This document shows, one piece after another, positions 201-9,574 of a stretch of DNA of 9,574 nucleotides (position 1 is its first letter; each line of letters starts with the position of its first letter). The notes under the pieces are model-generated. The model searched no databases, was not told the DNA's origin, and saw only the letters and a list, made by a program, of their open reading frames with translations. Both the position numbers and the translations under genes were made by a program. Source of the stretch: a virus (Duplodnaviria; Heunggongvirae; Uroviricota; Caudoviricetes); IMG/VR virus record IMGVR_UViG_2671180432_000011; one strand, given 5' to 3'.

Positions 201-1283
201 TCATTTTCTCTGGCTGATCTTTACCGGATAACCATCCCGAAGATCAATTAAGTGCTCCGGTTCAGAAGCAAACCATGCATAAGATCCCCACGCCAATTCT
301 GGTATTGCCTTTTTAAAAGGCAGAGCACTTCTGTCCATAAATGCCGTAAGGAATGCAAGATTTTTCTCGCTGAACCCAGCGTCAATAGCCAAATGAGTGA
401 GAGTAACTTTTCGTTCCCTGTTTATAGGCCCATCTGTCGCAACTACTTCAGTGAAAACTACAAGCATGTCCGAACCCGTTCGGTCCTCTCCCAAATCAAT
501 CAAAATAATATCTGGAAGTGCTTTTGAGGCATCAATATTCAGCCCCAATGCTTTTGCCAATACATCATCCTGAGCAACAACTTTATTCCCGGATTCAGAC
601 AACCAGAGCACAGTTGGATTCTTAAGAAAATTAGGAGCAAAAACTTCGATGACGGCCTTAGCTATTGTACTTGACGGGCCCGGAGCTAAAGTTCTCTTCT
701 CTCCATTTGGGAAAGTGACGACTACGGCATCAGCAGCAATCACTGCCCCTGATTTCAATAAACGCAACCTAGCAAGAGCGGCTTTGTTCAAATGATTTTC
801 TTGCCAGGAACTTATTGCACTCAGCAGCGAATCTCCTTCAAGCCCGGCATCAAAGAGTGCTGCAAAAGAGCGATTCAAACTGTAACGAGGACGAGAGGAT
901 GTGGTGGGTATACCTTTACGCTCAACAATTGCATTGCAAGGTATTAGGCCATTTTTTATAGTTTCATCACGTATTGGCTCACGCGTATTTTCCGCATACC
1001 ATGCATCAGCAGGCCTTATCTTTTGTTTAGAGAAAGTCATCTTTACCCAGCTTTCTCTGGACGCATCATCAGTAAGAGCAGCCTGCGAATCTCCCATACT
1101 TACAACCTGGCTGGGCCTTATCCATCGCCCCAGCCCCTCAACCGCACCAGCATAAAACATGACAAAAATTGTTTTTGCAGCTATTTCCCGAATTAAATAT
1201 CCACGATTCTCAGTCCCTTCAGGGAAAATTAATTGTAATCTTTCCCGGATAACATTCAATGGGGGAACAACAGGCAGATTCAT
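201..1283 (-). CDS. Candidate Type II restriction endonuclease, 360 aa, partner of the upstream methyltransferase; family unassigned (BsuBI/PstI-like is a hypothesis only)
   Basis: Uninterrupted 360-codon ORF. Its ATG (1283-1281) overlaps the methyltransferase TGA stop (1282-1280) as ATGA, implying translational coupling. GGAG lies about 10 nt upstream inside the methyltransferase 3' end. Possible PD-(D/E)xK-like stretch 'LPDIILIDLGED...VVFTEVV'. No Walker or methyltransferase motifs. The nuclease function is inferred from context, not shown. Confidence 0.5.
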   Translation of the reverse strand: MNLPVVPPLNVIRERLQLIFPEGTENRGYLIREIAAKTIFVMFYAGAVEGLGRWIRPSQVVSMGDSQAALTDDASRESWVKMTFSKQKIRPADAWYAENTREPIRDETIKNGLIPCNAIVERKGIPTTSSRPRYSLNRSFAALFDAGLEGDSLLSAISSWQENHLNKAALARLRLLKSGAVIAADAVVVTFPNGEKRTLAPGPSSTIAKAVIEVFAPNFLKNPTVLWLSESGNKVVAQDDVLAKALGLNIDASKALPDIILIDLGEDRTGSDMLVVFTEVVATDGPINRERKVTLTHLAIDAGFSEKNLAFLTAFMDRSALPFKKAIPELAWGSYAWFASEPEHLIDLRDGYPVKISQRK

Positions 1284-3112
1284 GCAATCATCACTCCATA
1301 GAAACCAGCGATAGTTCTCTCAATAATCCGTCTGTGGACGCCAGCATCAATTAACGATTGAATCTCCATCACCTGCTCCAGAGAAGGCAACGGGATTGAA
1401 TTCAATTCATAGGCCGAAACAGCAACACTTCCGCTTATACACCTGAACGCCCGATCGACAACATGCGAATTAAGTAGCATATCAATAACATCAGGGCGAA
1501 CCGCAGAGAACAATCCGTTTGAATATACAATATTAATATGGTTTTCAACTACTACGCCACCAGTTTCATCTATAAATCCCTGAGGTAAAATTGCCGCTAA
1601 AATCCTTCTGTCCTGTTCCTTCGATGTTGTCCGCTGAACAAGCACACATTCAGATTTTGTCACAAGGAAACCCTGTTGTGGGGTTATATCGATATAGGGA
1701 ACATGATTTTTTCTGTCTGCACTAAAACGAAAACCAGCTGAAGTTATTGATTCCGCCCAGACTAATGGGTAGCTATTTTTTCCTTTCGTCGTACGCAACT
1801 GCGACTTAAATCGATTCCAGACTAACTGACCTGTAGAGACTGAGTATCCCAGATCAGCTAAACGCGTAGACATCTGTTTTAATACATTAAGAAAACAGGC
1901 ATCATCTTTAACGCGTGGCAAAAGCCACGTTGCTCCACCTTTTTCTATATCAACATTACCTATTTTCTCAATTTTTGCTTTGTTCAACCCCTTAGGGACA
2001 AGTGAGGATACCTGGGCCCGAACTTTATGTTCTCCCGCCTTGAATGCTGTCAACATTGTTTCCTGGAGAACATCGTCAAAGACCCCATCCCTGTCAGTGA
2101 CGAAATCAAGGGCATACGGAGTAGTTTTTTCGGTCAAAAGGGTTCGCAGCGCGGTGAAATACTGCCCACCAAGAAAAGAAGTTGGCGTAAGAAATGCAAT
2201 AACTCCTGTTTTCTCTTTAACCATGCGAACAGCTAAGTCGGTGAACAATCCATATAGATTTGCATGACCAAATAACGAACGAGAATATTTTTCTCTCGTT
2301 TTAATATCGAGAGTGACACGTCCGTAAGGCGGATTCCCTACCACAAGATCATAACCAGAAAATTTATCTTGCTGAAGCGCATCAGCAACAATAATTGTAT
2401 CTTCAGGCAATCTACGTTTTACCTTTACACATAGTGGCATTAGTACAGATTCGAGCAATACCAAACTCATCCAAGCCGCAAATGGATCGATCTCTATCCC
2501 CTTTAAACGACGACTGATTCTCCTCAACATCCATTCAGGGGAAGACCCCTTGTCTTTTTTTAACATTCGAATGGCTACTGGTGCCAAAAATGCACCGCCA
2601 CCACACGCAGGATCAATAACCGATGCATGAGAAAAATCAACACCAGACTTTTCAGCCAGGTCCAAGAGACGCGCTACCAAAGGTGGGGGGGTATAGTAAG
2701 CCCCCAATTCCGAACGGTAAGCGGATGGCAGCATTACCGTATAAATTGACCCAATCAGATATCCAGCGTCCTCCGCCGGAAATTGAGCAATAAGCTCACC
2801 TGTTCGTTCAGCGAGCTCGCGTGCATCACATGGAATGTCTTCTATGTAAACAGTGTGCGGTACTGCCCTCATTTTAATGCTGCTTTTTTGCTTTTTTGCA
2901 AGGGTATCCCAATATGCAGCTACGATGCTGAAGCAGTATGAGCGGGCATGCATCAACCTTGACTGCCCGGTTTTGTAATTGCCCGCATAACCTTTGGCCA
3001 TGGCTTTACAAGTTTGATATCTTTCCAGATTAGAAAACTCATTATCTGTAAAAAAATCAAAATGTTGCACATTCATAATGTAAAATCCTAATGTATCAAA
3101 CATGCGGGCCAT
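1280..3112 (-). CDS. N6-adenine DNA methyltransferase, gamma class (Eco57I/TaqI-like motif order), 610 aa
   Basis: AdoMet-binding motif I 'VIDPACGGGAFL' is followed about 90 aa later by catalytic motif IV 'VVGNPPYG'; this order is diagnostic of gamma-class amino-methyltransferases. A C-terminal region of about 280 aa after NPPY is the likely target-recognition domain. The start is uncertain: ATG at 3112, 3103 or 3076, the last with AGGA upstream. Confidence 0.85.
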   Translation of the reverse strand: MARMFDTLGFYIMNVQHFDFFTDNEFSNLERYQTCKAMAKGYAGNYKTGQSRLMHARSYCFSIVAAYWDTLAKKQKSSIKMRAVPHTVYIEDIPCDARELAERTGELIAQFPAEDAGYLIGSIYTVMLPSAYRSELGAYYTPPPLVARLLDLAEKSGVDFSHASVIDPACGGGAFLAPVAIRMLKKDKGSSPEWMLRRISRRLKGIEIDPFAAWMSLVLLESVLMPLCVKVKRRLPEDTIIVADALQQDKFSGYDLVVGNPPYGRVTLDIKTREKYSRSLFGHANLYGLFTDLAVRMVKEKTGVIAFLTPTSFLGGQYFTALRTLLTEKTTPYALDFVTDRDGVFDDVLQETMLTAFKAGEHKVRAQVSSLVPKGLNKAKIEKIGNVDIEKGGATWLLPRVKDDACFLNVLKQMSTRLADLGYSVSTGQLVWNRFKSQLRTTKGKNSYPLVWAESITSAGFRFSADRKNHVPYIDITPQQGFLVTKSECVLVQRTTSKEQDRRILAAILPQGFIDETGGVVVENHINIVYSNGLFSAVRPDVIDMLLNSHVVDRAFRCISGSVAVSAYELNSIPLPSLEQVMEIQSLIDAGVHRRIIERTIAGFYGVMIA

Positions 3113-3886: not shown

Positions 3887-4136
3887 NNNNNNNNNNNNNN
3901 NNNNNNNNNNNNNNNNNNNNNNNNNNNNNNNNNNNNNNNNNNNNNNNNNNNNNNNNNNNNNNNNNNNNNNNNNNNNNNNNNNNNNNNNNNNNNNNNNNNN
4001 NNNNNNNNNNNNNNNNNNNNNNNNNNNNNNNNNNNNNNNNNNNNNNNNNNNNNNNNNNNNNNNNNNNNNNNNNNNNNNNNNNNNNNNNNNNNNNNNNNNN
4101 NNNNNNNNNNNNNNNNNNNNNNNNNNNNNNNNNNNN

Positions 4137-4168
4137 TCCCGCTCTTCCTGTGTAAATACTTTTGCCAT
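4137..4168 (-). CDS. 5' end of a small hypothetical gene (MAKVFTQEER...) running into the N-run
   Basis: ATG at 4168 with a G-rich RBS (GGGGGCGCTT) about 5 nt upstream, 15 nt after the stop of the preceding gene. Its frame differs from the 3741-3886 fragment, so this is probably a separate small gene. Confidence 0.3.
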
Positions 4169-4183
4169 AAGCGCCCCCGGCAA

Positions 4184-5438: not shown

Positions 5439-5688
5439 NNNNNNNNNNNNNNNNNNNNNNNNNNNNNNNNNNNNNNNNNNNNNNNNNNNNNNNNNNNNNN
5501 NNNNNNNNNNNNNNNNNNNNNNNNNNNNNNNNNNNNNNNNNNNNNNNNNNNNNNNNNNNNNNNNNNNNNNNNNNNNNNNNNNNNNNNNNNNNNNNNNNNN
5601 NNNNNNNNNNNNNNNNNNNNNNNNNNNNNNNNNNNNNNNNNNNNNNNNNNNNNNNNNNNNNNNNNNNNNNNNNNNNNNNNNNNNNNNN

Positions 5689-6660
5689 GGGGTTTTCAAA
5701 ATTCCGGTCCGGCCCAAAAAACGTCGTCGCTCGCTGAACAAATTCCGTTCCCGCTTTCCCGGTCGCCGCCAGGTATCTCGCGTAACGCCTCACACCATCC
5801 AGCATGGTCTCTGGTGGCCCCCCCTCGCGCAATCTGGCCTTCCAGGCACTGAATGCGGATTTCTTCGGGTTTGCCCCGGCACGCAACGGGTATTCCCGCC
5901 AGACCTGTTCGAACACATCCGGATAATCCACTCGTCCCACAGGCTGCCCGGTGTTTTCCGGGGCTACCCGATCGGCTTCCCGCTGAATGGCGGAATCGGC
6001 TTCAGGCTGCTGCAGTTGGAGTGATTGCTCCGGCCTTGCGGTCATCACCTGCTGCACAGCGCCCGAATCGGCTTTCAGCGCATACGCTGAATCGGCTTCC
6101 GGTGTCGAGCCTGCTGGCTGACCAGGATTGACGGTCTGAACATCCCCTGCCTGGTTCGTGGCGTTTTTTACGCCATGGACCATAGTGTTTTGATCTTCTT
6201 TATCTGTATCTTTATCTGTATCTGTCGTGACTCGTCGTGACATGTGCGTGACATTTCGTGACGCGCCGTGACAATCGCCATTTTGTTCCCGCTTTCTTTC
6301 CCTCTCTCGCTGCGCCCTCTTGCGCTCTGCAGGAGATTTTGCGGTTTGCGAAATATTGCCGTTGTCCTCTTTAAGCACCTGGCGTTTTTCCCATCCAGTG
6401 ATTAAATCACCATCAAGTACCCGCCCCTGCATCGTCTGCAAAATTGAATCAATTACCTCTTCTGTCACGTCGAGCGCACTTGCCAAATCTTCTGTCGTGA
6501 CATCAATGTGACCTCGCGTGACATTTCGTGACGCGCTCACCAGGAGGTGGATATACACTGCCATCACTGTTGCAATTGGCTGCCCTGACACCCTGGCAAT
6601 TGTTCGCCACTTAGGGTCATTTGGCATGTCATGCCATAATCTGAGCCAGGCGTTAGCCAT
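5689..6660 (-). CDS. Putative replication initiation protein (lambda-O position; possibly YdaU-like), N-terminal about 324 aa visible; 3' end masked
   Basis: ATG at 6660 with RBS GAGGTG 4 nt upstream. It sits between the CII-position gene and the DnaC-like gene. Phased iteron-like CGTGAC repeats lie inside it. Low-complexity linker 'TDTDKDTDKED'. Confidence 0.6.
6221..6272. repeat. Iteron-like array A: five CGTGAC hexamers phased at 10-11 bp (starts 6226, 6236, 6247, 6257, 6267), inside the initiator gene
   Basis: Read directly. Includes the 21-bp unit GCGTGACATTTCGTGACGCGC at 6246-6266, which recurs exactly at 6516-6536. A 12-bp tandem (ATCTGTATCTTT / ATCTGTATCTGT, 6202-6225) lies immediately upstream. 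Confidence 0.5.
6491..6540. repeat. Iteron-like array B: CGTGAC/TGTGAC hexamers phased at 10-11 bp (starts 6496, 6507, 6517, 6527), plus an inverted copy GTCACG at 6464-6469
   Basis: Read directly. Contains the second exact copy of the 21-bp unit at 6516-6536. Confidence 0.5.
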
Positions 6661-7017: not shown

Positions 7018-7278
7018 NNNNNNNNNNNNNNNNNNNNNNNNNNNNNNNNNNNNNNNNNNNNNNNNNNNNNNNNNNNNNNNNNNNNNNNNNNNNNNNNNNN
7101 NNNNNNNNNNNNNNNNNNNNNNNNNNNNNNNNNNNNNNNNNNNNNNNNNNNNNNNNNNNNNNNNNNNNNNNNNNNNNNNNNNNNNNNNNNNNNNNNNNNN
7201 NNNNNNNNNNNNNNNNNNNNNNNNNNNNNNNNNNNNNNNNNNNNNNNNNNNNNNNNNNNNNNNNNNNNNNNNNNNNNN

Positions 7279-7419
7279 ACACCAACGTAATATTTTTTCT
7301 CCTGTAAGTTTTGCACGCCCCGTTATAACGTGGCTGACCATCCCTTGGGATGCGCCAACAATCTCAGCAAATGAACTCTGGGTTATATGAAAATGATGCA
7401 AATATTCTCCAAGATTCAT
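7279..7419 (-). CDS. Cro-like HTH regulator (YdaS-like by position), N-terminal 47 aa visible; 3' end masked
   Basis: ATG at 7419 with upstream GGGCGGA. HTH 'ITQSSFAEIVGASQGMVSHVITGRAKLTGEKIL'. Divergent from the repressor gene across an operator-bearing intergenic region. Confidence 0.55.
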
Positions 7420-7530
7420 AATCCGCCCTATGTGATGTGTTACCAATGCATAATTAATAGCACTGTTATTTTTAAAAGTAAATAGTGATACTATTTCAAA
7501 GTGATTAGCAATCTTATTAGAATTGGATGT
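7420..7530. promoter_or_regulatory. Divergent promoter/operator region between the Cro-like gene and the repressor gene
   Basis: AT-rich. Plus-strand extended -10 'TGaTACTAT' (7486-7494) for the repressor operon. Candidate minus-strand promoter: -35 TTTACT (7482-7477), 17-nt spacer, -10 TATTAA (7459-7454). Both overlap operator half-sites. Promoter calls are by eye. Confidence 0.45.
7481..7495. promoter_or_regulatory. Operator-like palindrome AATAGT-GAT-ACTATT; a further half-site AATAGC at 7456-7461
   Basis: Perfect 6-bp inverted arms with a 3-bp GAT spacer. Near-identical to the palindrome at 8592-8606. Confidence 0.45.
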
Positions 7531-8031
7531 ATGAAAAGAAAATCATTGTCAGACACCGACCTCAACGCCGCCAGAAGACTGAAAGAAATCTGGATGGCAA
7601 AGAAATCTCAGTTGGGATTGACTCAGGAACGTGCGGCGGAAATTATGGGGTTTTCAACACAAGGGGCGGTAAGTCACTACCTAAATGGTCAAACCCCACT
7701 AAACCTTGAGGCTGTTCTAAAGTTTGCTGGCTTACTGAAAGTTCCCCCTGAGTCAATCAGGCCAGACATGGTAGATTTGCTGCAAATTGCAAGGATGTAT
7801 TGTCGAGAACCACAGCAAGATAACATAGTCGCATTACCAGCAGACACAGAACAAACAGAGGATGAACTACCGTTTGCCGTAGAGCCGATGGAACGAGATT
7901 TAATCCATACGTTCAGAGCTTTTCCGAAAGAAGATCAAGAACACATGCTTCAGGAGATGAAAGATAAAAAAGAATCAATGGATCGTACGGTTGCGCGGTG
8001 GTTAGCTGCACAAAAAGGCCGTCGCGCCTAA
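7531..8031 (+). CDS. paaR: PaaR-like HTH transcriptional regulator (phage-repressor-type N-terminal XRE/cI HTH; no LexA-like S24 peptidase domain), 166 aa
   Basis: ATG at 7531 (the track's GTG at 7501 is less likely). HTH 'LTQERAAEIMGFSTQGAVSHYLNGQ'. First gene of a three-gene operon with the antitoxin and ParE. The symbol is assigned from operon architecture. Confidence 0.7.
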   Translation: MKRKSLSDTDLNAARRLKEIWMAKKSQLGLTQERAAEIMGFSTQGAVSHYLNGQTPLNLEAVLKFAGLLKVPPESIRPDMVDLLQIARMYCREPQQDNIVALPADTEQTEDELPFAVEPMERDLIHTFRAFPKEDQEHMLQEMKDKKESMDRTVARWLAAQKGRRA

Positions 8032-8050
8032 ATCAGAGGAGATATGTAAA

Positions 8051-8245
8051 ATGAGTACAGTCCTTTCCCCAATGGTTTCAGAATTTGAGACAGTTGAGCA
8101 AGAAAATAGTTACAACGAATGGCTGCGGGCCAAAGTAGCAGCAAGCCTCGCGGATCCCCGCCCGGCGATTCCGCATGATGAGGTAATGGCGGAAATGGAA
8201 CAAATTATTGCCCAAATTGCTGCTGCAACTCACAGAGGTGAATAA
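8051..8245 (+). CDS. paaA: PaaA-like antitoxin of a ParE-family toxin, 64 aa
   Basis: RBS AGGAG at 8036-8040. The sequence 'LSPMVSEFETVEQENSYNEWLRAKVAASLADPRPAIPHDEV' closely resembles PaaA2 as I recall it. The stop overlaps the toxin start (TAATG). Confidence 0.7.
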   Translation: MSTVLSPMVSEFETVEQENSYNEWLRAKVAASLADPRPAIPHDEVMAEMEQIIAQIAAATHRGE

Positions 8246-8535
8246 TGTTACCCGTTTTATGGCTACCATCTGCTCGTGATGATTTGCGCCAGATCGTAGC
8301 CTACATAGCTAAAGAAAATCCCGCGGCAGCACGCAGAATGAAAATTCGAATTGAAACATCCGTTTTGCCGCTCACAGAGCATCCTTACCTGTATCCTCCA
8401 AGCGAGCGAGTTCTTGGTCTTCGTGAAATTGTAACTCATCCTAACTACATCATCCTTTACCGAGTAACAGCATCAAGCATAGAAGTAGTAAATATTGTGC
8501 ATTCTCGAAGACAGTATCCAGGCAAAAACAGTTAA
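8245..8535 (+). CDS. parE: ParE-family toxin (RelE/ParE superfamily), 96 aa
   Basis: ParE signatures 'LWLPSARDDLRQIVAYIAKENPAAA' and 'REIVTHPNYIILYRV...IEVVNIVHSRRQYP'. 1-nt start/stop overlap with the antitoxin gene. Confidence 0.85.
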   Translation: MLPVLWLPSARDDLRQIVAYIAKENPAAARRMKIRIETSVLPLTEHPYLYPPSERVLGLREIVTHPNYIILYRVTASSIEVVNIVHSRRQYPGKNS

Positions 8536-8551
8536 TTATTCCCGCCGACAG

Positions 8552-8577
8552 AACCACCTTAGGGTGGTTTTTTCTTG
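8552..8577 (+). terminator. Rho-independent terminator of the paaR-paaA-parE operon
   Basis: Stem AACCACC (8552-8558), loop TTAG, stem GGTGGTT (8563-8569), then a T-tract TTTTTTCTT, starting 17 nt after the parE stop. Confidence 0.6.
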
Positions 8578-8591
8578 CCCCAACAAAAAAC

Positions 8592-8606
8592 AATAGCGAT
8601 GCTATT
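8592..8606. promoter_or_regulatory. Second operator-like palindrome AATAGC-GAT-GCTATT, embedded in a 10-bp inverted repeat (AAACAATAGC 8588-8597 / GCTATTGTTT 8628-8637); GATGCTATT repeats at 8625-8633
   Basis: Read directly. Same AATAGY-GAT-RCTATT architecture as 7481-7495. Confidence 0.45.
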
Positions 8607-8814
8607 TACATCAAAAAAAATAATGATGCTATTGTTTCAGGCGTCAACCCACCCCGCCCCACAGAATGCAGGGCAATACTTCGAGTTACCAGACAGTGGT
8701 CAGGGGTTAAGTAGCCAGCCCGAGGCGTAAGAACATGACGGCAGGGTTCAATCTTTAACTATGCAGCAGGTTTTTTGTTCCGCCACCCCGGCGTTAAGGG
8801 GAAATGAGGTCAGC

Positions 8815-8967
8815 ATGGATACTATCGATCTTGGCAACAACGAATCTCTGGTGTGCGGCGTGTTCCCTAACCAGGATGGAACGTTTACCGCCATGACGTA
8901 TACCAAAAGCAAAACGTTTAAAACCGAATCTGGCGCGCGTTGCTGGTTAGCCAGAAACACTGACTGA
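8815..8967 (+). CDS. Small hypothetical protein, 50 aa (MDTIDLGNNESLVCGVFPNQDG...)
   Basis: ATG at 8815 with GAGG 5 nt upstream. The track's longer start at 8761 lacks an RBS. The position matches small early-leftward prophage genes. Confidence 0.4.
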   Translation: MDTIDLGNNESLVCGVFPNQDGTFTAMTYTKSKTFKTESGARCWLARNTD

Positions 8968-9344
8968 TGAGGCTGACGATGGAATTTAAAGATTTACCGT
9001 CTGATGTACAGAAAACAGCAGCTCATACATTGCATTCTGTGCTGCGAGAAATCGGGAAAGATATTGCAAGCGAGCCAGCAAAAGATCTGGCCCGGAAAAT
9101 CAAGACCGCTTTCGTTGAGCTTTATAATGTTGGCACTGACTCTGAAACTGTCGAGACCAAGACCGTAAGTTCACCAATATTCTCACTTGAGCCAAGCGTA
9201 TTATCAGGTGAAATATGCACCGAGATTTCCAGCGAACTGCTTCCGGTAATACGAGAAGCAATTCGCCGTCGCGGTTTGGATGGAAGTTATGATCATGACG
9301 TTCTGCAAGTTCTCAGGACAATGGTGACTTCACTGGGGATTTGA
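8967..9344 (+). CDS. Hypothetical protein, about 121-125 aa
   Basis: ATG at 8967 overlaps the upstream TGA (TGATG); an alternative ATG at 8979 has GAGG at a 6-nt spacing. No motif recognised. Confidence 0.55.
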   Translation: MRLTMEFKDLPSDVQKTAAHTLHSVLREIGKDIASEPAKDLARKIKTAFVELYNVGTDSETVETKTVSSPIFSLEPSVLSGEICTEISSELLPVIREAIRRRGLDGSYDHDVLQVLRTMVTSLGI

Positions 9345-9574
9345 TCCCTGCGTCCTCTAAGCTTTTGATATAGCGGTCCTCCAAGAAGCGGTAAATTTTG
9401 TCGAAATCATCTTTTCCCTCTGGTTTATTCAGAGGATTACAGGACCCGTAAGTAGCGGCATACATTTCAACCGTTTGGTAATGACTCCAACTTATTGATA
9501 GTGTTTTATGTTCAGATAATGCCCGATGACTTTGTCATGCAGCTCCACCGATTTTGAGAACGACAGCGACTTCC

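Follow-up and report, generated by a model that had tools for sequence, protein, structure and literature searches.

Why should a repressor operon that also carries a toxin-antitoxin (TA) pair be flanked on both sides by palindromes of the same kind? This question is raised by a 9,574-nt stretch of DNA (the window) from the Caudoviricetes virus record IMGVR_UViG_2671180432_000011, in which a repressor gene, an antitoxin gene and a toxin gene follow one another. The original prediction was that the palindromes resemble the right and left operators (OR and OL) of phage lambda, that one regulator controls both the immunity switch and a downstream early promoter, and that the TA pair lies inside the immunity region. 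The dyads are very probably sites through which the repressor and a Cro-like protein control promoters on both sides of the repressor-antitoxin-toxin operon. We are also confident that the whole scheme is the immunity region of a lambdoid prophage, similar to those of Rac, Qin and CP-933P, with operators at OR and OL.

Probable operator dyads on both sides of the operon

Four 15-bp dyads of the form AATAGY-N3-RYTATT were found in the window, two at OR and two at OL. OR-A and OR-B are placed between the divergent cro-like and repressor genes, and OL1 and OL2 follow the operon terminator. They overlap or abut three putative promoters, named here as in lambda: PR on the cro-like side, PRM (promoter for repressor maintenance) of the repressor operon, and PL beyond the TA genes. 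The sites, to which no strand is assigned, are as follows.

7456-7470: operator OR-A, AATAGCACTGTTATT; covers the PR -10; outer AATA/TATT invariant in all relatives
7481-7495: operator OR-B, AATAGTGATACTATT; perfect 6+3+6 dyad; 2-bp overlap with the PR -35, abuts the PRM -35
7504-7518: candidate weak third operator OR-C, ATTAGCAATCTTATT; in the PRM spacer, contains the dyad GATT-N3-AATC
8592-8606: operator OL1, AATAGCGATGCTATT; perfect 6+3+6 dyad; its end overlaps the PL -35
8619-8633: operator OL2, AATAATGATGCTATT; covers the PL -10

OR-B and OL1 are the two palindromes from which the original prediction started, and both were recovered in place as perfect dyads. Two shorter elements that it had described as isolated half-sites, AATAGC (7456-7461) and GATGCTATT (8625-8633), are present but not isolated: the former is part of the full site OR-A and the latter of the full site OL2. 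The 10-bp inverted repeat reported at OL was exact (8588-8597 against 8628-8637, 100% complementary) and consists of the outer halves of both OL sites plus three flanking bases. Each side therefore carries two strong operators, and no third OL site reached 9 of the 12 half-site positions.

With up to three mismatches to AATAGYGATRCTATT, 7 strand-matches were found in the window, all within the OR and OL regions, while shuffled sequences gave a mean of 0.69 matches and reached 7 in 0 of 200 cases. No site with at least 10 of the 12 half-site positions was found outside OR and OL, either in the window or in five relatives of the same type. The prophage-wide motif search suggested along with the prediction gave a similar result. 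In 49.9 kb of sequence that span the prophage of a 98.6% identical relative, the degenerate motif with at most one mismatch matched only OR and OL plus one isolated site at chance level, and the 9 strand-matches found there (1.37 expected) were reached in 0 of 100 shuffles. Thus, the motif does not recur elsewhere at random frequency, and its counts exceed those of all shuffles.

Immunity types and the co-variation of regulators with operators

The window was compared with ten loci of the same gene order (L001-L010) from complete E. coli genomes, and four types were assigned by regulator. They are listed below with the recognition helices of the repressor and of the Cro-like protein.

Type 1: window and L001-L005; 166-aa repressor; operator AATAGY-N3-RYTATT; helices STQGAVSHY (repressor) and ASQGMVSHV (Cro)
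Type 2: L006 and L007; 133-aa repressor; OR/OL common motif ACAGTTTTTTATTGT; helices TQQTVQQW and AQQTVWQW
Type 3: L008, the PaaR2 locus (start MQKKE); 123-aa repressor; common GTTTAGT-type repeats and TTAAGTCAAGTA; helices SYLSQLMSGR and SYLSQMASGR
Type 4: L009 and L010; 132-aa repressor; OR/OL common motif CACTTTTAAAGTTA; helices AQQSVQKW and PQQVVSRW

Within types, the best ungapped score of OR against OL averaged 17.3 (minimum 11); between types it averaged 8.8 (maximum 14), and shuffled sequences scored about 8. These ungapped local alignment scores replaced the longest common substring, which was too crude as a statistic (11.4 for the same type and 7.9 for different types), being blurred by variable centres and AT-rich runs. 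The exact type 1 motif was absent from all loci of types 2 to 4. So the claim that one type of operator flanks the repressor-TA operon holds: the four dyads are confined to OR and OL, and OR matches OL within a type only. In every type the repressor and Cro helices resemble each other, as expected if both proteins read the same operators.

The six type 1 loci are about 80% identical overall and provide 24 operator copies, 15 of them distinct. The outer AATA and TATT never change among these copies, positions 5-6 and 10-11 vary slightly, and the central base is free, which is the pattern expected of a site bound by a helix-turn-helix (HTH) dimer. The distance between the centres of OR-A and OR-B is 25 bp in all six loci, and that between OL1 and OL2 is 25 bp in the five relatives. 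Across the 11 loci and four types, the repressor's DNA-binding domain, the recognition helix of Cro, OR and OL change together. The second claim of the original prediction, that one set of regulators controls both the switch and the downstream early promoter, is supported by this co-variation and by experiments on prophage CP-933P, which are described below.

A natural recombinant bears on the same point. The TA pair of L010 is 94% and 91% identical to that of L008, and only 73% and 72% identical to that of L009. The OL of L010, by comparison, is 90% identical to the OL of L009 and 59% to that of L008. Since L010 combines an L008-like TA pair with L009-like OR and OL, OL follows the regulators and not the cassette that lies between OR and OL. 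Since the cassette between them is exchanged independently, the way OL tracks OR points, in this single comparison, to functional coupling and not just to linkage.

The repressors of all four types end in a common C-terminal tail of about 45 aa (F-AFPEEDQ..ML.EMKDKKESM..ARWLAAQK.RRA), and the N-terminal domains to which it is joined are unrelated. Which TA variant is present does not follow the immunity type: L010 combines a PaaA2/ParE2-like pair with a type 4 repressor. Co-evolution of the tail with the TA pair was considered and rejected: between L010 and L008 the tail is 56% identical despite the close likeness of their TA pairs. This makes oligomerisation a likelier role for the tail than docking of the TA proteins.

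Beyond the operators, the region that follows PL is also conserved between types.

8645-8814, plus strand: conserved leader from PL to ydfA; right-hand boundary of the type-specific segment

This leader (about 170 nt) is 89-98% identical across types 1, 2 and 4, and the adjoining operator segment is 63-68% identical across types. Matches to phage DNA were limited to the ydfA leader region, in several sequenced phages. A search of the whole window against Rfam, leader included, gave no match. Folding of 8642-8830 was no better than that of shuffles (z +1.45), and the fold of the leader alignment had a covariation term of +0.58 with compensatory changes in 4 of 51 pairs, so no evidence of a structured RNA was obtained for the leader.

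Taken together, the PaaR-type regions might comprise at least four heteroimmune specificities on a constant scaffold, with one matching set of repressor DNA-binding domain, Cro, OR and OL replaced by another. We put this forward tentatively, as a possibility that falls slightly short of an even chance. The scaffold would be the C-terminal tail of the repressor, the PaaA-ParE cassette and the PL leader, with the TA cassette recombining independently. If this is true, OR and OL stay matched through selection, for which the simplest reason would be that the conserved tail joins repressor at both sites into one looped complex. No immunity swap could then dispense with the addictive TA cassette, in line with the proposal of Jurenas et al. 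(mBio 2021; PMC8630535), and the window would be the lambda-CI-headed member of the set, with a PL weakened by a 2-bp insertion.

The query 7291-8900 was covered to at least 80% in 72 of 5,426 complete E. coli genomes, and matches to the TA pair were found in 842 E. coli genomes. The prophage of the 98.6% relative used above (L011; NZ_CM177019.1 177000-226900) lies next to tRNA-Ser and looks nearly complete, with genes for lysis, terminase, an HK97-type head and a sheathed tail, and an IS4 element in the tape-measure gene. It also has a second, unrelated ParD/ParE pair. As its lysis, head and tail genes are kept, this immunity type is not confined to remnants.

Genes, promoters and the predicted circuit

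The genes of the immunity region in the window are the following.

7156-7419, minus strand: cro/ydaS-like HTH gene; visible part 7290-7419 (7019-7289 masked), end taken from the 87-aa gene of L001
7531-8031, plus strand: repressor gene, 166 aa; lambda-CI-like N-terminal HTH with basic arm, PaaR2-type C-terminal tail
8051-8245, plus strand: paaA-family antitoxin gene, 64 aa; Pfam PF21217 PaaA2, E 3e-23; PDB 3zbe PaaA2, E 1.4e-23
8245-8535, plus strand: ParE-family toxin gene, 96 aa; Pfam PF05016, E 1.8e-17; ParE2 5cw7_B, E 6.7e-37
8815-8967, plus strand: ydfA (DUF1391), first gene of the PL-side operon; Pfam PF07151, E 1.3e-28

The repressor is built from two parts. Its residues 2-81 match the N-terminal domain of the lambda repressor (1lmb, E 2.9e-9), with MKRKSL aligned to the arm KKKPL, and this match ends at about residue 90. 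Over its C-terminal 44 aa it has 52% identity to PaaR2 (E 4e-15), while its N-terminus gave no BLASTP alignment with PaaR2 and 24% identity in a forced global alignment. Pfam gave HTH_3 and HTH_31 only, with no sign of an S24 peptidase domain. Among sequenced phages, the repressor matched only lambda-type cI, at about 31% identity. On the other side of OR, the 43 visible residues of the cro-like product had a weak Pfam HTH_3 match, and BLASTP aligned its HTH with that of the repressor at 38% identity over 48 aa, including the common S/T-QG-x-VSH. In L001, a full 87-aa HTH homologue and then a YdaT-family gene are annotated where the window is masked.

Pfam found no DNA-binding domain in the antitoxin. 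The gap between the repressor and antitoxin genes is 19 bp and contains a ribosome-binding site, and the toxin ATG at 8245 overlaps the antitoxin stop codon. The lack of a DNA-binding domain in the antitoxin and the short gap after the repressor gene suggest that the TA pair is expressed within the repressor transcript.

Promoters and a terminator were then placed on this map.

7454-7482, minus strand: PR-like promoter; -35 TTTACT (7482-7477), 17-bp spacer, extended -10 TGcTATTAA (7462-7454)
7495-7523, plus strand: PRM-like promoter TTCAAA-17-TAGAAT; scanner match in the window, L001 and L002, invariant in six loci
8550-8576, plus strand: intrinsic terminator that ends the repressor-TA operon; stem AACCACC/GGUGGUU, then a U-run
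8605-8635, plus strand: PL-like promoter; -35 TTTACA (8605-8610), extended -10 TGcTATTGT (8627-8635)

PR, a predicted promoter of the same build as PL, would drive the cro-like side, and every position of it is conserved in all six type 1 loci. PR and PL are inverted copies of one module of about 40 bp, in the order operator, TAC(T/A), spacer, and a second operator that contains TGcTATT. Each of the two promoters thus has one operator over the -35 and one over the -10, and RNA polymerase should be blocked when both are occupied. OR-B reaches up to the start of the PRM -35, a position equivalent to that of lambda OR2.

For the repressor operon itself, the original prediction had placed an extended -10 element over 7481-7495. 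This part did not hold. The element TGaTACTAT (7486-7494) was found in this window only (0 of 5 relatives) and was rejected as the operon promoter, whereas TTCAAA-17-TAGAAT is invariant. It arises from a symmetric double substitution in OR-B carried by this window alone; relative to the 98.6% relative, 7486 (position 6) changes from C to T and 7490 (position 10) from G to A, and the dyad stays perfect. The PRM -10 TAGAAT ends 7 nt before the repressor ATG, the A of which (7531) is the 8th nucleotide after the -10, and no Shine-Dalgarno sequence is evident before this ATG. This placement of the -10 implies a leaderless repressor mRNA starting at 7531, and the geometry matches that of the leaderless lambda cI and the leaderless paaR2. 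Two further scanner matches, TTGACT-17-AATTAT (7618-7646, plus strand) and TTGACG-16-CATTAT (8647-8620, minus strand), are absent from L002 and were taken as chance. The total number of promoter-scanner matches equals the shuffle expectation.

The hairpin and U-run that end the operon ahead of OL, as had been proposed, were confirmed at 8550-8576 (dG -15.1 kcal/mol, z -2.9), with a scanner match in L002 too and conservation in six loci. The intergenic region given as 280 bp measures 279 bp between the parE stop codon (8535) and the start of ydfA (8815). In this region, the spacer of PL is 19 bp in the window and 17 bp in all five relatives, and the scanner reports TTTACA-17-TATTGT with TG in L001 and L002, not in the window. 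The difference lies in an A-run (8613-8620), with 8 A in the window against 6 in both 98%-identical E. coli genomes. The two extra A also shift the OL1-OL2 spacing, which is 27 bp in the window and 25 bp in the relatives. They may be a genuine mutation that weakens PL, or a sequencing error in the homopolymer.

In the circuit that we propose, the 166-aa repressor would be transcribed from PRM together with the PaaA antitoxin and the ParE toxin, probably as a leaderless mRNA, and transcription would stop at the hairpin. Repressor dimers are predicted to bind the 15-bp AATAGY-N3-RYTATT operators, and the Cro-like protein, with its near-identical recognition helix, probably binds the same operators. 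Two operators would cover the -10 and -35 of PR, which would drive the cro-like, ydaT-like and replication genes. Two others, 1.1 kb away, would cover the -35 and -10 of PL, which would drive ydfA and, in relatives, dicB or kil. Repressor bound at OR-B could activate its own PRM, like lambda CI at OR2, and the weak third site in the PRM spacer may serve negative autoregulation or repression by Cro. Because the antitoxin lacks a DNA-binding domain, expression of the TA pair would depend on the immunity switch. For the window, the assignment of proteins to sites, activation of PRM, leaderless translation, and looping between OR and OL through the C-terminal tail are all predictions of this circuit. 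Computed here were the sites and their confinement to OR and OL, as well as the homologies of the proteins and how regulators and operators co-vary among the four types.

Several genes and features lie around this region. On the minus strand, the cro-like gene is followed by replication genes and then by a restriction-modification pair (201-3112, minus strand), formed by a BsuBI/PstI-type restriction endonuclease (201-1283) and an Eco57I/N6-adenine methyltransferase (1280-3112). The pair sits downstream of the replication genes, at a place where a close relative has other genes. N-masked runs at 7019-7289, about 5440-5690 and about 3890-4180 hide parts of the cro-like and ydaT-like genes, replication genes and another open reading frame (ORF). 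Due to this masking, the part of the switch that involves YdaT and PRE (promoter for repressor establishment) is unreadable in the window. On the PL side, ydfA is followed in relatives by ydfB, ydfC, and dicB or kil. In the window this operon is cut short by an IS1 end at 9476-9574, which matches annotated IS1A/IS1B transposase, and the 125-aa ORF just before it (8967-9344) belongs to no Pfam family.

Some points weigh against this interpretation. Operator binding at these dyads is something we infer from the comparison and from the CP-933P homologue. The co-variation evidence comes from 11 loci, and the recombinant argument from a single comparison of L009, L010 and L008. Overlap with the promoters keeps most of OR conserved, and conservation taken alone cannot separate an operator from a promoter. 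PR scores 8/12 against the consensus, under the scanner threshold of 9, and relies on its extended -10. With a 19-bp spacer, PL may be weak or dead in this copy, and the phasing of OL1 and OL2 is off by 2 bp. OR-C has 2 mismatches to AATAGYNNNRYTATT, a level at which the window has five unrelated matches against 4.2 expected, so that by sequence it is indistinguishable from chance. It is kept as a candidate for its position (23 bp from OR-B) and its conservation.

Could the dyads instead be duplicated promoter sequence, copied between PR and PL, with no operator function? The two promoters are indeed inverted copies, and because their -35 and -10 elements overlap the dyads, promoter conservation would keep much of the sequence. 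However, a promoter does not need a perfect 6+6 dyad symmetry. The outer AATA/TATT are invariant while promoter-spacer positions and the dyad centre vary, and the symmetric double change that separates the OR-B of the window from that of L001 preserves the dyad. Moreover, types 2-4 use the same sigma-70 and yet have entirely different motifs, in step with their DNA-binding domains. This explanation is very unlikely. Chance similarity in AT-rich intergenic DNA is less probable still and has hardly any claim to consideration: both regions are AT-rich and matches with 2 mismatches do occur at chance frequency, but the observed counts were reached in 0 of 200 and 0 of 100 shuffles, which refutes it, and the position and spacing of the sites are conserved across six loci.

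The remaining alternatives accept the dyads as binding sites and differ on the protein. A type II TA operon is usually autoregulated, and palindromes upstream of it are normally operators for the antitoxin or the antitoxin-toxin complex. Here, the 64-aa antitoxin is of the PaaA2 family, with no DNA-binding domain detected, the operators track the repressor and Cro type and not the TA variant, and two of the four sites are found downstream, past the end of the operon and at another promoter. Such autoregulation is extremely improbable. It is somewhat easier to imagine, if still unlikely, that only one regulator uses the dyads and that, for example, the Cro-like protein reads GATT-N3-AATC (7503-7513), or the reverse. 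In favor of this, the PRM spacer holds a separate conserved small dyad, and CP-933P has two overlapping classes of repeats, with the exact PaaR2 and YdaS sites left open (PMC8630535). Against it, the repressor and Cro helices are near-identical (S/T-QG-x-VSH) and are matched in the other three types too, and the DNA protected by the two proteins overlaps in CP-933P, where each of them represses PR, PRM and PL. Control of the promoters on both sides by the repressor and the Cro-like protein through common operators therefore remains the favored reading.

Comparison with lambda, Qin, Rac and CP-933P

The region is similar to the immunity region of lambda in several respects. Both have divergent PR and PRM with common operators, and in both the repressor operon carries accessory genes and ends just before OL and PL. 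The N-terminal domains of the repressors are homologous, including the basic arm, and the middle operator abuts the PRM -35. The spacing of lambda operators is comparable with the 23-25 bp found here. Unlike that of lambda, the window repressor lacks a C-terminal domain of the LexA/S24 type and is therefore not expected to undergo RecA-dependent self-cleavage. The 15-bp operators are of another sequence, with two strong sites per side instead of three, the distance from OR to OL is 1.1 kb (about 2.3 kb in lambda), and no N-like gene is evident after PL. A ParE-type TA pair takes the place of rexAB. Thus, the third claim of the original prediction, that the TA pair lies inside the immunity region, agrees with this position and with the gene order of CP-933P.

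The region also resembles those of the E. coli K-12 prophages Qin (dicA/dicC-ydfABC-dicB) and Rac (racR/ydaS-ydaT) in its PL-side genes ydfA, ydfB, ydfC, and dicB or kil. The switches of Qin and Rac have a YdaS/YdaT-type rightward operon and a short repressor that does not cleave itself, as in the window, but their repressors and operators differ from those found here. Neither prophage is known to carry a TA pair in the interval from the repressor gene to the leftward promoter.

The closest published case is prophage CP-933P (Sp12) of E. coli O157:H7 (Hallez et al., 2010; Jurenas et al., 2021, PMC8630535; YdaT structure, PMC9986795). Its paaR2-paaA2-parE2 operon lies in the immunity region, where PaaR2 has the role of CI, YdaS that of Cro and YdaT that of CII (PMC8630535). 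PaaR2 and YdaS bind the 97-bp OR intergenic region in electrophoretic mobility shift assays and DNase I footprints, the protected DNA overlaps, and green fluorescent protein fusions showed that both repress PR, PRM and PL (PMC8630535). Beyond the TA genes there is a PL-like promoter with OR-like operators, repressed about 100-fold by PaaR2 and YdaS (PMC8630535). The paaR2 mRNA is leaderless by 5' RACE, PaaR2 has no self-cleavage domain, low levels of it activated PRM933P, and the switch is bistable (PMC8630535). The PaaA2-type antitoxin has no DNA-binding domain, and three operators were named at OR and three at OL, with four inverted repeats at OR (PMC8630535). Binding, repression of the three promoters, leaderless paaR2 and bistability are thus experimental findings on the CP-933P homologue, and by analogy they may hold for the window.

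The type represented by the window and CP-933P have the same order of ydaT, ydaS, OR, regulator, paaA, parE, terminator, OL/PL and ydfA-type genes. The antitoxin, the toxin and the C-terminal 44 aa of the regulator are homologous, the regulator likewise lacks a peptidase domain, and one kind of operator stands both at OR and at a PL-like promoter past the TA genes. In addition, L001 has an inverted repeat, TTGGTTTTCATGAATCAA, at 2859-2876, which corresponds to the masked positions of about 7149-7166 in the window and lies at the ydaS stop and ydaT start. It is one base off the published YdaT site TTGATTN6AATCAA and is located where CP-933P has operator OM and PRE (PMC9986795); judged by its count only, this repeat is not significant in L001. 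The regulators differ: the N-terminal domain in the window is lambda-CI-like and bears no relation to the PaaR2 one, and over its first 43 residues the Cro-like protein has about 35% identity to its CP-933P counterpart. The operator is AATAGY-N3-RYTATT in the window against published GTTTAGTAA-type repeats in CP-933P, and GTTTAGT repeats were seen only in L008, the PaaR2 locus, which marks a different immunity specificity for the window. There are two clear operators per side against three named in CP-933P, and the OR intergenic region is 111 bp against 97 bp.

The original prediction is, in effect, an independent rediscovery of the published CP-933P arrangement. The arrangement itself is not new, and the window is a different immunity type in which a CI-like head on a PaaR tail brings a new DNA-binding specificity. 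For annotation, this means that the trio labelled 'HTH protein + RelB + RelE/ParE' in these prophages is best taken as an immunity repressor with a passenger TA pair, and that a ydaS/ydaT pair should not be read as a TA system. With its clean, predicted 15-bp operator and a repressor that has a DNA-binding domain homologous to lambda CI's, the window offers a convenient system for studying swaps of specificity on a fixed oligomerisation tail. The natural mosaics can be used to test whether OR and OL must match, as looping would need, and whether the TA pair constrains recombination of immunity. What is new and of most use here is the set of four matched immunity types, together with the OL that follows OR across a swapped TA cassette. 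The layout of CP-933P, with a TA pair wired into the lysis-lysogeny switch, is accordingly not a single case but one of several heteroimmune versions in E. coli prophages.

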